DNA of 64,000 bases from an uncultured Lachnospiraceae bacterium (GTDB taxonomy: Bacteria > Bacillota > Clostridia > Lachnospirales > Lachnospiraceae), in the NCBI GenBank assembly GCA_902781655.1, contig CACZJZ010000018.1, positions 7,119-71,118 on the forward strand. The letters are read 5' to 3'. Each line of letters opens with the position of its first letter. Within the stretch, counting starts at the first letter, position 1. Below, piece by piece: positions 36,439 through 47,854 of this stretch. The notes beneath the pieces were generated by a model, which worked only from the letters and a program-made list of their open reading frames with translations, was not told where the DNA came from and made no database searches. The translations under genes and the position numbers were made by a program.

Positions 36439-36441
36439 CAT

Positions 36442-36514
36442 GGGGCATTAGCTCAGTCGGTAGAGCACTTGACTTTTAATCAAGTTGTCGCGGGTTCGAT
36501 TCCCGCATGCCTCA
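36442..36514 (+). tRNA. tRNA-Lys(TTT)
   Basis: CTTGA-CT-TTT-AA-TCAAG anticodon arm. Confidence 0.95.
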
Positions 36515-36524
36515 GTTTTCAAAG

Positions 36525-36692: not shown

Positions 36693-36724
36693 GAAGCCCC
36701 TCGCAGAGGGGCTGGTATTGAAAT
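36693..36724 (+). CRISPR. Solitary CRISPR-like repeat, copy 1 (type I-C architecture)
   Basis: GAAGCCCCTCGCAGAGGGGCTGGTATTGAAAT: 32 nt, hairpin at positions 4-20, 3' end ATTGAAAT. No cas genes in the window. Confidence 0.55.
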
Positions 36725-37164
36725 CTTGAAGCGTTTAACACAAAGGGTGCGCTGAAAGTCCGCTCTGCCCTGCTCAGATACACCGCGGAGAAATACCAGG
36801 GAGACGAGCTTATCCGGAGCGTGGAGAAATATCAGGATGCCTATACCGCAGTGGAAAAGACGAAAACGGTAAGTGCTGCCATGGGCGAGATGATGAATGA
36901 CGCCATGTCCGGCATTTTCTCATCGAAGGAAGGCATTCATGATCTTTCAGAATGGCTGAATAAAAAGCAGGGCGTAAAGGAACAGAAATCAGTTCTCGGA
37001 ACGCTGGCGGACCATTTCAGGGGAATAGAGACCGCCATGCGTAATCTGCTCAACAGGGGCACTCTGACTTCATCCGGGCGCCATGCTGCCATGATCGCAG
37101 AGAAGAATGCATCGAAGATCCGGAAGATGATTCTGGACGAGATGGATGTGGCAATCGAAAATGC
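36693..37164 (+). repeat. 472-bp direct repeat (repeat unit plus constant coding block C1), copy 1; copy 2 at 40926-41397
   Basis: Manual alignment gives about 17 substitutions, mostly at third codon positions. Confidence 0.95.
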
Positions 37165-38012
37165 GCAGAATGCGTCGCTGGATGAGAACGCGAAGAGTTC
37201 TGCAGCATATTCAGTCGGCGATTATGTTTTCGGACAAAAATCCTATACGTATGATGCAAAGAACAATGAGTTTGTATCGGATGATGGCCGGATTATCCCA
37301 GTGGCGGACAAAATTTTCTCTGTTAGCGATATAAAGAATGCAGAATACATTGTTCGTGAATTAGTTGCTGATCGAAAAGGTCCGCATATCGAGGAGATTT
37401 TCTAAAAAATATACCCACAACGGATTTATGAAATACGCGCCAGCAAAAGATAAGTCTGTCAAGATGAACATGTCTGCTGATGTGACCGACCTTATCGAGA
37501 ATGCAACCGGACTACGGCATGAACCTGATAAGAATGGGAAACATGGTGTATTCGCTGGAAGAGGATGGAATTATTATGACGCAGATATTGCTGTAAAGTT
37601 CAGAAACGAGTATCAGATATTCCGATCGGAGCTGCAAATAGCGTTATGTTTATGATATAAAGAATCCAAAAAAATCTCATCATGGGGTGCGGCTACTTCG
37701 GAAAATCCTTCTGCCTCACTGACTGGGAAGCCAGCTTTACGCCCCATGAGAGATTTATCTGCTAATAGTGTAGTGCAAGAAAGCAATGAAGTCAATGCAA
37801 AGCAGGATTATCAGGAGATCGAGGATAGTGTTCCGGATGTCAAACGCTTCTCCATCGATGTAGACCATACGGTCCAGCAGACGAAAGACCTGATTGCTGT
37901 TCACAACCTCAATGAGGAGAACCTGCGGTTTTCTATCAATATCAGCGATGCTGAAAAGAAGCAGATTTTTTTGCTACAAAAAATGGAAATGAGATAATTA
38001 TTTATATCGGCC
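36725..38012 (+). pseudogene. Cassette 1: polyvalent-protein fragment (C1 + frameshifted LPD3/BECR-like domain + J)
   Basis: ORF pieces 36821-37405, 37365-37655 and 37746-37997. DLIENAT...KH...GWNYYD and YVYDIK motifs are split across frames. Confidence 0.7.
37872..37969 (+). repeat. 98-bp identical repeat (junction block J); second copy at 42194-42291
   Basis: GTCCAGCAGACGAAAGACC...GAAGCAGATTTT. Its 5' half also matches 39069 onward and its 3' half resembles 40418-40441. Confidence 0.95.
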
Positions 38013-38224
38013 ACGCTGGCGGACCATTTCAGGGGAATAGAGACCGCCATGCGTAATCTGCTCAACAGGGGAACTCTGACTTCATCCGGGCGCCATGCTG
38101 CCATGATCGCGGAGAAGAATGCATCGAAGATCCGTAAGATGATTCTGGACGAGATGGATACTGCTATTGAGAATGCGCAGAATGCGAAGGTCGATGAGAA
38201 CGCGAAGAGCTCGGCGGCATATTC
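38013..38224 (+). repeat. Partial third copy of C1 (matches 37001-37212)
   Basis: ACGCTGGCGGACCATTTCAGGGG...GCATATTC. Confidence 0.93.
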
Positions 38225-40925
38225 TCTCACAAATAAGGACGATTATGCGATCTTCCTTTATCAGAATAATGATGAACAGAAGAGAGACGAGAGGCTAAGA
38301 GATACAAGTATAAAAATAGAAAATGCGAATAATGAAAACTATTCACAGCTTACTAAAGGTCAACTTTCGTCTATCGTGAATGCAAGATCGTTAAAAGAGA
38401 TTGAGAATATTTTCAAAAATTACTGCGGGAAAATAAAAATATGGGGAACGCAGTTCCGCTCTCCTGAACTCGATTTTGAATATGGATTTTCTGTCGGCGC
38501 ATTGCATGAAAGCGTACACAAGCAATCATTAATTAAAACTGGTAGTGAGGAAAATAACAAATTTTTAGCTCTTGCCAAAGCGATTGCGTCTGCAAATAGT
38601 ATCACAAGCAACGCAAAGTTACTTGAGATGCATACGGACCAGGATTATGCGAAAAGCATTGAGCCGAATCACAAAGTAAATTCTAATATTAAATATACTT
38701 ACGAGCTTATTTCCGGCTATATAGATGGGGAAAATATAGTTCCAGTAAAGATTACAGTTAAGGAATATTTAGAAAGAGCGAATACACCAAATATGATGTA
38801 TGTCCTTGAATCATTACCTGCAATAAATAAGGACAGCATCACTATGAAGGCCATCCCTGACATGAATCAGGGAAGACGCGACACTCCGCTGTCCGATAAC
38901 TATAGTTTAGCAGACATTCTTAGCGTTATCAAGAATAGCGCAGCTGATGACGAACGGCTTGATAAGGCAGTCGGCAGATATATTCCCGATCAGTTTGCCA
39001 ATACAACAAAATCATTAACTGAGAATATCCCGACTAAAGCAAAGTTGTCCATTGATGTAGACCAGCCTGTCCAGCAGACGGAAGACCTGATTGCTGTTCA
39101 CAACCTTGACGAGGAGAAACTGCTTGCCGACATCAACGAGCTTGGCGGCTTCCCTGCTCCATCCATTGCTATCATCCGGCAGGGGATGGAACACAATGGA
39201 TATGGGGATATTTCAGTTCTGTTCGAGAAGGACACGATCGACCCGGAACGCAGCAAGTACAACCATGTGTATGGTGGGGATGCGTGGACACCTACATTCC
39301 CGTCCGTTGAGTACGACATCAATAACGATGTTTTTTATAAGGCCAGAGAGAAATTCAAAGCTCTTAAGGGCAGAATCCTGTCTTATCTTTATGAGGAGGC
39401 GCTGCGGGTCAACAATAACGGAACAGGAAACGTCGAATATTCTGGTATGGATAGCTTTGTTCAGAAGATGGAGCAGAACTACGGAATCCGTGCTGCATAT
39501 GTCGCTTCAAAGGGCATTCAAATTGATGACAATGCGAAGCGGACGGAAGTTGGCAAATATGATGATAGCGAAGTAAAGGCGTTCGAGGCAGAGCGCAATA
39601 CCCTGAGTCATATCGGCGTTACGGGCGAAGAGCTTCGCGAAATGCCGGTTAATCAAGTAAAACAGGAATACGGGGATCTTAGACTCCAGGCATATCAGGA
39701 TAGGGCCAATACCATGGACAAGAAGAAAGCGGAACGGTTCATGGAGAAAGCAAAATCCAATTATGATGGCCCGGTCTTCGTGTTCAGAAACATGGTGGAT
39801 AGCATTGCCAATGCGTTGGATTATTACAAAAATGGAAATCCGACGCATACAGAATATGAACGCGATGAGAATGCTATCCGGGAGAAAATTGATTCGAATA
39901 TCAATGAGAAGGACCTTGAAAGCTGGATCAGGGACACCTATGAGGGCCTTGTTGGGAATAAAGGTATCTCTAATGGGGTGGACCCGTATACTCCATCCGG
40001 TAACCGGAGGGGCTTCCGTGCAACACATTATGCATTCATTCTTGATAATGTTGTCCGCGCTATGAGAGAACAGCAGGCCGAAAAAGGAGCTAACGCGTTT
40101 GCTGAAACCGGATTTACTGCTGTATCTACGAAGGATTTCAAGAATATCGATGATATTCACGCAAATGAAGATCCGATACAGAGCCTTTCGGAAGAGGAAT
40201 ATAAGAGCCTGCGAAAGAACATAGACGACAAGGTAGATGAAATTGCAAACTTGAGGCAAAGCCGATGCGGGCCGTCGGTCTGGAAGAAATTGCGGACGTA
40301 ATTGCTCCGGATACTGTCTCTGACGAACTGAAGCAGGCACTTGAGAGCAATAACATTCCGTATGAACTGTACAAGGCAGGAGACAACGCAGACCGTACAC
40401 TGAAGATGAATGCGCATGAAAATCTGCGGTTCTCAATCAATGTTGATAATGAAGGAAACCAGCTGAGCCATGACCAGAAGAACTATTTCAAGAATTCAAA
40501 AGTCCGTGATGATGAAGGAAATCTTCTTGTTATGTATCATGGTACTCCGCAGGGCGGCTTCACAAAGTTCCGTAACGGTCTCACTTATTATTTCACAAGT
40601 AACCCAGAATATGCACAGGAGTATGAAGGAAAGAATCCCCAGCGCGGACAGCAGAGCAATCCTCAGATTTATAAGGTATATCTGAATATTACTCATCCGT
40701 TTGATACCAGAAATGCTGCTGACCGGAAACTGTTCATAAATCAGTATGCGAAGGGAGGATATGCCCTTGGCATTGACCCATACAGCGGCGAGACAGGACT
40801 TTCAGAGAATGGACTTCCGGATTGGAATGAAGCAGATAACATTTATGATTTCCTTGAAGAAAATGACCTGCTCGATAAGTATGATGGTATGGTCATTGAT
40901 GAGGCAGGAAGCGCACGAGGCTCAG
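38013..40925 (+). pseudogene. Cassette 2: polyvalent-protein fragment (partial C1 + LPD3-like domain + LIAVHNL domain + truncated ART-like domain)
   Basis: ORFs 38049-40301 and 40265-40954, with a frame change at about 40250. Motifs LHESVHK...VPVKITVKEY; LIAVHNL...GGFPAPSIA...DAWTPTFP; YHGT...YYFT...VYLNITHP. Confidence 0.72.
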
Positions 40926-40957
40926 GAAGCCCCTCGCAGAGGGGCTGGTATTGAAAT
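40926..40957 (+). CRISPR. Solitary CRISPR-like repeat, copy 2 (identical 32-mer)
   Basis: Same 32 nt as 36693-36724, 4233 bp downstream. Confidence 0.55.
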
Positions 40958-40990
40958 CTTGAAGCGTTAAATACAAAGGGCGCGCTGAAA

Positions 40991-42670
40991 GTGCGCTCTG
41001 CCCTGCTCAGATACGCCGCGGAGAAATACCAGGGAGACGAGCTTATCAGGAGCGTGGAGAAATATCAGGATGCCTATACCGCGGTGGAAAAGACGAAAAC
41101 GGTAAGTGCTGCCATGGGCGAGATGATGAATGACGCCATGTCCGGCATTTTCTCATCGAAGGAAGGTATTCATGATCTTTCTGAATGGCTGGATAGGAAG
41201 CAGGGCGTAAAGGAACAGAAATCAGTTCTCGGCACGCTGGCGGACCATTTCAGGGGAATAGAGACCGCCATGCGTAATCTGCTCAACAGGGGCACTCTGA
41301 CTTCATCCGGGCGCCATGCTGCCATGATCGCGGAGAAGAATGCATCGAAGATCCGGAAGATGATTCTGGACGAGATGGATGTGGCCATAGAGAATGCAGC
41401 GAAAGCGAATGTGGTGGAAGGAGTTGGAGAAAACAAAGTATTTTCTCTCAAACAACAGGAGAAAACAAAATTAAGAGACAGAATAAATCTGGTAATGCAA
41501 GGCAGAAATTTTGAAAATGATATGGTATTTCTGAGAAATACTCCAAAAATATTGATTGATGAAATAGGACTTGAGGATATTCCAATGGCCATGACATCGA
41601 ATCATGTATATTCAGATATCGTAAGCAGAGAAGAAGCAATCAGAAATGGAAGATTCAAAGAGAAAGTAAATTATCACGACTTAGGAAAGTATGGGTTTAT
41701 ACATGCAATCGACAATCTGGATGATCCAATAATCATTGTAAAATCCAGAAACGAGGATGCAAACACAGATATTGTTGCTGTAACGGATACCATTGATAAA
41801 AATGGAAATACCGTACTGGCTGCAATTCGAGTGGGGAAAGAAGGTAACATTTCTGGAACGAGAACCTACATCAATGATATTGGAAGTGTTTATGGAAAGA
41901 AGAATACGATTATTGGATATATTGAGAATGCCTATAGCAAGGGGAGAATATTGTATTTGAACAAAATTAAAGCCAGAAATGAGAATGCACCCGGGTTCCA
42001 ATTACCCGACCGGATCCTCAACACTGGCTTTAAGTCAAATGTAGAACACTATAGGGACATTGTCAATAAAAAACGCATAAATAAACAAAATCAAAATACG
42101 ATAGCAAGCCAGAGAAAGGCAGAAAATGATATATCGAATAAAATCAATGATCTACCAGAAGAAAGACATTTCTCCCTTGATGTGGATGAGCCTGTCCAGC
42201 AGACGAAAGACCTGATTGCTGTTCACAACCTCAATGAGGAGAACCTGCGGTTTTCTATCAATATCAGCGATGCTGAAAAGAAGCAGATTTTAAATGAAGA
42301 GAAAAGACTTCAAAAGCAGATCGATAACTGGAATGGAATTGATGAGTCGATACATTTTGAGGTAGCAAAAACTCCGGATATTCTCAAGAACAAACTGAAT
42401 TTTGAATCTTTGTCCATAGAGATCGACTCTTCAAAGGTGAAGAAAATAAGTGTACAGAAGATAACGAGTACATACGCAAAAGAAAACGCCCAGCATATCC
42501 TTGATCAAAGCGATATTGAGTACGTTAATCAAGACAAAAAAATTACCATCAGCTGGCAGAAACTTACTAGGCTCCAATTGCCGTTCGTGAATCTGAATGC
42601 TGGTGGTTATAATAATACTTTATCACACAGTGCGAACATCAGCAATAACATTCAAACTCCCGGTTTATAA
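40991..42670 (+). CDS. Cassette 3: open polyvalent-protein fragment (C1 + MuF-C-like domain + J + internally deleted second MuF-C-like domain)
   Basis: 559-aa ORF with a GTG start. TPKILI..GLEDIPMAMT..H...HDLG...DPIIIVKS...NDIGSVYGK; later TPDILK and KITSTYAK...LQLP. Confidence 0.65.
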   Translation: MRSALLRYAAEKYQGDELIRSVEKYQDAYTAVEKTKTVSAAMGEMMNDAMSGIFSSKEGIHDLSEWLDRKQGVKEQKSVLGTLADHFRGIETAMRNLLNRGTLTSSGRHAAMIAEKNASKIRKMILDEMDVAIENAAKANVVEGVGENKVFSLKQQEKTKLRDRINLVMQGRNFENDMVFLRNTPKILIDEIGLEDIPMAMTSNHVYSDIVSREEAIRNGRFKEKVNYHDLGKYGFIHAIDNLDDPIIIVKSRNEDANTDIVAVTDTIDKNGNTVLAAIRVGKEGNISGTRTYINDIGSVYGKKNTIIGYIENAYSKGRILYLNKIKARNENAPGFQLPDRILNTGFKSNVEHYRDIVNKKRINKQNQNTIASQRKAENDISNKINDLPEERHFSLDVDEPVQQTKDLIAVHNLNEENLRFSINISDAEKKQILNEEKRLQKQIDNWNGIDESIHFEVAKTPDILKNKLNFESLSIEIDSSKVKKISVQKITSTYAKENAQHILDQSDIEYVNQDKKITISWQKLTRLQLPFVNLNAGGYNNTLSHSANISNNIQTPGL

Positions 42671-42777
42671 TGCAAGAGAAGCGGGATAAATCCCCCGGCG
42701 CGAATATCGCTGACATTAAGAATAATGCGGGATGATAATATAATATTATAGGGAAGGTCTCAGGCAGGAGAGAGGAT

Positions 42778-47787: not shown

Positions 47788-47854
47788 TTGTCCCTAACGA
47801 GTTTAGCTTGTTTGGTACAATTTGTACCAAACAAGCTAAACTCGTTAGGGACAA
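47788..47854. repeat. Perfect 67-bp palindrome (33-bp arms, 1-nt centre)
   Basis: TTGTCCCTAACGAGTTTAGCTTGTTTGGTACAA-T-TTGTACCAAACAAGCTAAACTCGTTAGGGACAA. Confidence 0.95.

Follow-up and report, generated by a model that had tools for sequence, protein, structure and literature searches.

In a window of 64,000 nucleotides (nt) from an uncultured Lachnospiraceae bacterium (assembly GCA_902781655.1, contig CACZJZ010000018.1, positions 7,119 to 71,118; "window" denotes this whole stretch, to which coordinates refer unless a contig is named) we characterized a chromosomal island of ~6 kb (~36694-42656) that lies between a tRNA-Lys gene and truA. The island consists of three pseudogenised fragments, here called cassettes 1 to 3, of the polyvalent-protein gene of a temperate phage. 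Polyvalent proteins are multi-effector proteins injected by phages, and the shuffling of their modules has so far been inferred from domain architectures only. Cassettes 1 and 3 contain one and the same joint of 98 base pairs (bp), named J, in which the start of a PBECR5 domain is fused to a different module, T. The two J copies almost certainly share one origin, and J is so far specific to this chromosomal locus. The cassettes around it show patch-wise replacement by homologous recombination with phage alleles, with crossovers located in a conserved block at the cassette start (C) and in a 26-nt box at the start of J.

The three C blocks are 85-95% identical to each other. They are followed by an LPD3 module in cassette 1, by an uncharacterised module together with PBECR5 and ART in cassette 2, and by a MuF_C module in cassette 3. 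A 32-nt element, R (GAAGCCCCTCGCAGAGGGGCTGGTATTGAAAT), heads cassettes 1 and 3, its copies being 4233 bp apart.

Anatomy of the shared joint

The two copies of J (37872-37969 and 42194-42291) are identical over all 98 bp and have sharp edges: only 31 of 60 positions match in the 60 nt upstream and 18 of 60 in the 60 nt downstream. Both the identity and the translation, VQQTKDLIAVHNLNEENLRFSINISDAEKKQI, had been put forward in an earlier sequence-only reading of the window, as had the corresponding ends in cassette 2, LIAVHNLDEEKL (39087-39122) and HENLRFSIN (40415-40441). All of these were confirmed. J is composed of four parts. The first is the 26-nt box (GTCCAGCAGACGAAAGACCTGATTGC, 37872-37897). 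Across 11 copies, drawn from the window, one other strain, two phages and three further species, it shows 0-2 mismatches, while the sequences flanking it vary. Since the box is nearly invariant in every phage or chromosomal allele examined, setting it aside leaves ~72 nt of identity specific to J. The box is followed by the remainder of the PBECR5 N-terminus (37898-37919), a 21-nt leader encoding NLRFSIN (37920-37940) and the start of module T (37941-37969).

The right-hand parts of J have different affinities. The leader matches the leader following PBECR5 at 18 of 21 positions in cassette 2 and at 17 of 21 in contig L024, but the leader preceding module T in phages at only 13 of 21. The subsequent 29 nt agree with the T start of phage L035 at 27 positions and with cassette 2 at 13, such that the right half of J resembles cassette 2 over the 21 nt of the leader only.

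At the joint the first ~19 PBECR5 codons run in frame into the NLRFSIN leader, after which T begins, and the ~1.3-kb body of PBECR5 is absent. The joint lies within a microhomology encoding E-(N/K)-L (GAGAA-CTG), where GAGGAGAA(A/C)CTG on the left side and CATGAAAATCTG on the right side correspond to GAGGAGAACCTG in J. In terms of the Pfam profile PBECR5 (PF18814, 239 positions), the J-bearing open reading frames (ORFs) match only positions 2-33 and 5-33, whereas cassette 2 covers positions 6-224. Membership of the PBECR5 nuclease domain, which takes most of the profile including the catalytic core, thus does not extend to the J-bearing ORFs. Relatives with the AVHN motif of the left side all continue into a full PBECR5, in 13 of 13 other representative proteins and at 5 of 5 loci (IMG/VR and GTDB genomes). 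A natural allele, L029, reads AVHNLNEENL|LKTLKLG and thus has NEENL at the position of the joint.

To call J a deletion scar, as in the sequence-only reading, is reasonable because the PBECR5 body is missing. The left parent runs on into the missing segment (in the 13 proteins, the 5 loci and cassette 2), and a short sequence is shared at the joint. The right side is divided: the leader is of the post-PBECR5 type, yet in the nearest phages the body of T lies upstream of the PBECR5 stub. The proposed joining of the two PBECR5 ends through microhomology accordingly stands for the fusion of stub and leader, while the sequence beyond the leader is T and not the ART of cassette 2. Nor does cassette 2 represent the undeleted state, as had been assumed. 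It is an analogue and not the parent, since ART and not T follows its leader. We also noted a frame change in cassette 2 at 40265-40301, between the end of PBECR5 and the leader preceding ART. The two ends compared in the sequence-only reading are therefore in different frames there, while J is in frame.

Distribution of the joint

Comparison of J with phage genomes had been suggested as a check, and J itself was found only at this chromosomal locus. The scans of sequence collections rely on exact words or patterns, by which diverged copies can be missed. In these scans the joint peptide was absent from IMG/VR and from one genome each of 185,579 species, where only its left half occurs, always before a full PBECR5. 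A degenerate J pattern had no occurrence in IMG/VR or in the metagenome contigs of JGI, and a tblastn search of the J peptide against the INPHARED phages gave no match. Among 5.8 billion protein sequences, searched in three length ranges, no long protein carries the joint. It is present there in the short ORFs P0156 and P0158, with matches confined to this truA locus.

P0156 originates from contig L037, which covers this locus in a different strain; the truA flanks are 98.5% identical. L037 runs from tRNA-Lys through R, C, LPD3 and the linker to the first 71 nt of J, which are followed by the region upstream of truA. The joint between J and the truA region lies in an AATAT microhomology, and L037 lacks the flank bases 42657-42702, which both the window and the empty site of the sister species G008 keep. 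The single-cassette form of L037 is thus derived, and J predates the split between the L037 strain and the three-cassette strain.

Loss of PBECR5 is common in this gene family. The sequence-only reading had named the occurrence of J as a natural allele in intact phage genes as the observation that would speak against it. J was not found in phage genes, but other PBECR5-less joints are present in two intact ones: P0153 reads RHFSLDVDKPVQQTKD|RTQKMNAHENLRFSINV, its left side ending in VQQTKD, and P0152, which lacks the PBECR5 module, reads SANISNN|IPYELY. The chromosomal fragments of other species have their break immediately behind the box, with DLIA|DRTQKMNAH in L024, DLIAV|LAPG* in L025 and EENL|DISETAQ in P0155 from contig L053. 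Several different modules follow the post-PBECR5 leader in relatives.

In L038 (9423-10863, another species) a tRNA-Gly gene is followed by an apparent minus-strand remnant of the C-terminus of a tyrosine integrase and by two tandem partial cassettes (end of LPD3, linker, PBECR5 N-terminus) that are 76% alike and meet in a backward joint, GGFPAPS|...HGVFAG. According to its translation, a gene for a transposase of the IS200 type (Y1) lies directly upstream of the fragments in L025 (1-470), and an ISL3 transposase gene lies downstream of those in L024 (1762-3126). In L053 (1-5300) and L054 (1-4700), from another organism, polyvalent fragments are found ~0.9 kb downstream of the incomplete last repeat of a type I-C CRISPR array, the order being cas1, cas2 and array. 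The PBECR5 stub of P0155 is there joined to a different module. A prophage is inserted after the fragments in L053 and is missing in L054.

Common origin of J and patch-wise exchange

The single origin of J follows from the ~72 nt of J-specific identity, which include an illegitimate joint not plausibly formed twice. The earlier claim that the scar arose once is therefore well supported. In cassette 3 J stands in its native context: the linker before it is identical to that of phage L033 up to the box and diverges afterwards (on reading the alignment of 42091-42231 with L033, all mismatches fall after the 26-nt box), and to its right the sequence goes on into T. The J of cassette 1, by contrast, forms a delimited patch, with a linker of the LPD3 type before it and an unrelated filler behind.

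Comparing cassette 1 of L037 with that of the three-cassette strain revealed a background of ~1.2% mismatches, similar to the flank, and in addition two dense patches matching other alleles, the C block and the end of LPD3 at ~25%. Along the C block of L037 the variable sites switch from C1-like to C3/L033-like and back. The differences between the C blocks of cassettes 1 and 3 (C1 and C3) are natural phage polymorphisms, e.g. NK versus DR. At least three phage alleles contributed material to the three cassettes. Since the R|C joint and J each occur in more than one cassette, the cassettes do not represent three independent insertions. This supports the exchange between fixed borders that the sequence-only reading had proposed as in-place replacement, but not its swaps of whole interiors, as the exchanged pieces are patches smaller than a cassette.

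The island and its setting

Two independent metagenome assemblies hold the same three-cassette island with both J copies, so that it is no assembly artefact. In the sister species G008 the site is empty and the flanks meet with 30 nt between them, which sets the bounds of the island at ~36694-42656. The island was not found in 60 related genomes, and no other copy of the C block, J or the cassette 2 protein is present elsewhere in this genome. Its G+C content is ~0.43 versus ~0.56. All ORFs of the island are pieces of the phage polyvalent protein (columns 1033-1900 of the 3513 of phrog_22978), and no other phage gene is found in it between tRNA-Lys and truA. The ORFs comprise 83-750 amino acids (aa) and are split by stops and frameshifts, while the intact relatives P0002, P0151, P0152 and P0153 comprise 3173-3508 aa. 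Searches of the island against Rfam and PADLOC gave no match. The features, all on the plus strand, are:

36441-36515, +, tRNA-Lys, last of a cluster of six tRNAs (ARAGORN)
up to 36693, +, left chromosomal flank; G008 aligns up to 36693
36693-36724, +, R copy 1, at the island's left end, a 32-nt element resembling a type I-C repeat
36725-37212, +, C block of cassette 1, a conserved region downstream of the zincin motif; 95.2% to L033 13415-13871, 95.5% to the C block of cassette 3
37213-37745, +, LPD3 module of cassette 1, decayed (Pfam LPD3)
37746-37871, +, LPD3-type linker ending in KRFSIDVDHT; the same linker precedes the PBECR5 N-terminus in L038
37872-37969, +, J copy 1 (box 37872-37897, rest of PBECR5 37898-37919, leader 37920-37940, T start 37941-37969)
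37970-38006, +, AT-rich filler between J and cassette 2, an illegitimate joint; no significant similarity to T or the rest of the island
38007-38239, +, partial C block of cassette 2, beginning mid-block and lacking R; 94.5% to L033 13686-13865
38240-39044, +, uncharacterised module of cassette 2; 43% to P0003, where it likewise follows the C block
39045-40414, +, linker and complete PBECR5 of cassette 2, frameshifted between 40265 and 40301 (Pfam PBECR5, E = 1.9e-45, residues 337-560)
40415-40441, +, HENLRFSIN leader of cassette 2 after PBECR5, the right-hand analogue of the J joint; 18/21 to J 37920-37940
40442-40925, +, ART-PolyVal of cassette 2, cut off at 40925 (Pfam positions 1-86 of 140); 92.6-92.9% to phages L034 and L035
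40926-40957, +, R copy 2, immediately following the point where the phage ART homology ends
40958-41446, +, C block of cassette 3; 92% to L033 13415-13903, its differences from C1 being natural phage polymorphisms
41447-42090, +, MuF_C module of cassette 3 (Pfam MuF_C, E = 1.1e-15); C is followed by MuF_C also in the intact P0005
42091-42193, +, linker of the L033 type with RHFSLDVDEP at its end; 42091-42231 matches L033 14491-14631 at 97.2%
42194-42291, +, J copy 2, in extended native context with phage-like sequence on both sides
42292-42656, +, module T, a second MuF_C-like module, cut off at the right end of the island; 92-94% to L033 13898-14095 and 14282-14495, 86% at the aa level to P0151 and P0152
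42657-42777, +, right chromosomal flank upstream of truA (start 42778); G008 aligns from 42705, and CCGGTTT(T)AT is common to the empty site of G008

The frameshifts, a stop within R and two private deletions in cassette 1 are indicative of decay. These deletions comprise 47 bp (37373/37374) and 23 bp (37644, at an ATAGCG repeat), which the two metagenome assemblies keep, while the frameshift in LPD3 is common to other strains. Compared to phage L033, module T has an in-frame internal deletion of 186 bp (L033 14096-14281) with a 6-nt overlap at the joint (42443-42448). Cassette 3 is an open frame of 559 aa.

The filler was considered as decayed T sequence. For 37970-38012 the similarity to T was no better than that of shuffled controls, and this origin was rejected. 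Within the filler, at 37971-37998, we noted a promoter-like site (TTGCTA, 16 nt, TG GATAAT) ~50 bp before the ATG of the 750-aa ORF of cassette 2. Farther to the right, at 47788-47854, the end of gltX contains a 33-nt inverted repeat without mismatches around a 1-nt centre.

Donor phages and the CRISPR system of the host

Donor genes were found by a full HMMER search and a region-restricted word search. The genes of the intact relatives lie on Logan contigs together with capsid, holin, lysozyme and integrase genes, and in temperate phages they are flanked by the lysis genes on one side and the integrase on the other. The donor contigs L027 and L033-L036 carry intact genes with 90-97% DNA identity to segments of the island. 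Phages L033 and L035 have the order C, T, linker, stub and PBECR5, i.e. T is located upstream of the stub. Read along L033, J jumps from 14631 back to 13898. A megablast search of the island against the INPHARED phages and the PLSDB plasmids gave no match, and cassette 3 has no relatives in IMG/VR. The island was also considered as a remnant at the donor phage's own attachment (att) site, which was rejected: the phage contigs show no similarity in tRNA or flank.

The host possesses a type I-C CRISPR-Cas system (Csd1, Cas1) on another contig (G000 contig C8:1-9227; L021-L023) with ~60 repeats of GTCGGGTCCCGCAAGGGACCTGTGGATTGAAAT. Six of the 58 host spacers match the donor phage family at 94-100%, all with a TTC protospacer-adjacent motif (PAM), which indicates that this phage family infects the host lineage. 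One of the six lies in the 5' part of the polyvalent gene. No host spacer matches the island itself, i.e. self-targeting was not found.

Element R has the length (32 nt) and shape of a type I-C repeat, and its ATTGAAAT tail is common to the host's own repeat. It was not assigned to a CRISPR array: its two copies are solitary instead of regularly spaced with spacers of ~30-40 bp, and the cas genes and the host array, with a different repeat, are on another contig. R also has no match among the CRISPR direct-repeat (CRISPR-DR) families of Rfam. The two R copies adjoin the phage gene at one and the same base, at HEGMGEV|LEAFN in the phage. This is no canonical type I-C spacer junction, since GTG instead of TTC precedes the shared start in the phage. 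Nor was R assigned to the phage gene or to attP, given its absence from the donor phage contigs. No exact R was found in IMG/VR. One exact copy occurs in an unrelated metagenome contig (L052, 437-468, minus strand), just outside an IS21-family istA/istB element.

How the joint and the island may have arisen

On balance we favour, if modestly, an account in which a single joint, copying within the locus, conversion by phage-derived patches and microhomology deletions produced an island without a function of its own. In this order of events, which we infer from the arrangement described above, one joint would have formed first, most likely by a microhomology deletion of PBECR5 in either the chromosome or a phage. 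The locus would then have grown by intralocus duplication or by recombination between conserved borders, which placed J in two cassettes. The left border would be R with the ~450-bp C block and the right border the 26-nt box at the start of J. Subsequently the cassette contents, and also parts of C, would have been overwritten patch by patch through homologous recombination with DNA of related phages that infect the host and are presumably cut by its type I-C CRISPR system. Microhomology deletions may finally have trimmed the array, e.g. to the single-cassette form in other strains. No evidence was found for a function of the island, and in this account it would be a by-product.

Several observations weigh against this account. 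The divergence between C1 and C3 is 4.5%, that between the J copies 0%. The probability of finding no difference in 72-98 nt is 0.01-0.04 if J is as old as the C1/C3 split, such that the two borders do not share one simple duplication history. The duplication of a bordered unit, as the sequence-only reading had it, is thus retained for the single origin of J but not in the form of one simple event. The account explains neither the role of R nor its meeting with the phage gene at the same base in both copies. An allele with PBECR5 followed by T was not found, and relative to the nearest phages, with T upstream of the stub, J is a backward joint. Finally, J and the 186-bp deletion of T are both in frame, hinting at formation in a working phage gene, and analogous PBECR5-less joints exist in intact phage genes. 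J could therefore have formed in a phage before capture.

The last points lead to an alternative that we consider rather unlikely yet worth weighing, in which J is a natural allele that arose by in-frame loss of PBECR5 in a working phage gene and reached the two cassettes by separate recombination events. Besides the reading frames and the joints of P0153 and P0152, it draws on the fact that the cassettes demonstrably acquire patches of phage alleles. The joint was however missing from IMG/VR, the 185,579 species genomes, the JGI metagenome contigs and INPHARED, and the 5.8 billion proteins contain it at this truA locus only, as far as searches by exact words and patterns reach.

The backward direction of the joint can alternatively be taken at face value. 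J would then have arisen within the tandem array, by unequal or illegitimate recombination that connected the PBECR5 stub of one cassette to the C/T boundary of its neighbour. The gene order of L033 and L035 and the jump from 14631 to 13898 are in agreement with this idea; all other joints between cassettes of the island are likewise backward jumps, and L038 provides a similar one in another species. We nevertheless regard it as improbable: the 21-nt stretch at the joint belongs to the post-PBECR5 type of leader (18/21 with cassette 2, 17/21 with L024) and not to T's own (13/21), and with several modules following this leader in relatives, an allele with T behind it is plausible.

A use for the island can also be imagined. 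It might be a chromosomal store with fixed borders (R and C on the left, the 26-nt box or J on the right) that is repeatedly fed by CRISPR-cut phage DNA and serves as homology trap, as source of guide-like RNAs or as donor of modules that reshape phage polyvalent proteins; we hold this to be improbable too. Most doubtful is an actual working system, not exclusive of the other explanations, that would be either a store of silent cassettes or a set of units headed by CRISPR-like repeats and giving guide-like RNAs or homology traps, with J and C maintained as borders: the type I-C length, shape and ATTGAAAT tail of R, the other fragment locus just behind the trailer end of a type I-C array, the targeting of donor phages by the host, the cassette-like recombination raised for polyvalent loci (Iyer et al. 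2017) and the open 559-aa frame of cassette 3 are opposed by the decay seen in frameshifts, stops, strain-specific small deletions and neighbouring insertion sequences, by the phage site beside R lacking a TTC PAM, by the lack of matches in Rfam and PADLOC, by the lack of a full-length polyvalent gene in the genome as expression site and by the absence of the island from all related species sampled.

Significance

The locus provides a nucleotide-level view of module exchange in polyvalent genes, in which a ~450-bp constant block and a 26-nt box bracket a variable slot. Together with its relatives it reveals several independent losses of PBECR5 at short homologies, in intact phage genes as well as in chromosomal fragments. 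A bacterial chromosome here retains fragments of phages that are targeted by its own CRISPR system and apparently swaps patches with them. Should the fragments return modules to phages, or should the repeat-headed units be processed, this would constitute a new kind of phage-host exchange; a store headed by type I-C-like repeats would in addition link CRISPR loci to the capture of phage DNA on the kilobase scale. Otherwise the locus is a well-documented case of ordinary decay and gene conversion.

Comparison with known systems

Polyvalent proteins, polymorphic-toxin arrays, CRISPR arrays and simple prophage remnants each have a defining feature that the island lacks, so that it belongs to none of them. 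With polyvalent proteins it shares the domain families LPD3, PBECR5, ART-PolyVal and MuF_C, and by its domains and relatives the source gene can be assigned to the polyvalent proteins of Iyer et al. 2017. For polyvalent loci, small neighbouring ORFs reminiscent of polymorphic-toxin cassettes have been noted (Iyer, Burroughs, Anand, de Souza, Aravind 2017, PMC5512222). In contrast to one long polypeptide encoded by a phage or conjugative element, the island holds three partial, broken copies of the central region and no intact protein, and it is chromosomal, with no phage around it.

Cryptic prophage remnants resemble the island in low G+C content, a neighbouring tRNA cluster, frameshifts, small strain-specific deletions, short-homology joints and absence from the sister species. 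The island differs from them in that it contains only the central part of a single gene, in three copies that derive from at least three alleles, and it shows no similarity to the donor phages in integrase or att.

Arrays of orphan or silent cassettes at polymorphic toxin loci, such as rearrangement hotspot (Rhs) and contact-dependent inhibition (CDI), consist of a tandem constant block with variable modules, and recombination through the constant block swaps their contents. The tandem C blocks followed by variable modules conform to this arrangement. Different from such arrays, this genome has no full-length main gene and the island no immunity genes; its units are phage-derived and pseudogenised, and a second fixed border exists on the right, the 26-nt box or J.

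Varble et al. in 2019 and 2021 reportedly described the recombination of phages with CRISPR loci, including integration of prophages into CRISPR repeats. R differs from the repeats of such loci, being solitary, not the host repeat, not in an array and missing from the phage contigs, and the adjoining phage site lacks a TTC PAM. The likeness lies in phage DNA that is joined directly to a CRISPR-type repeat in a host whose CRISPR system targets the same phage family, and in the second fragment locus (L053/L054) close to a type I-C array.

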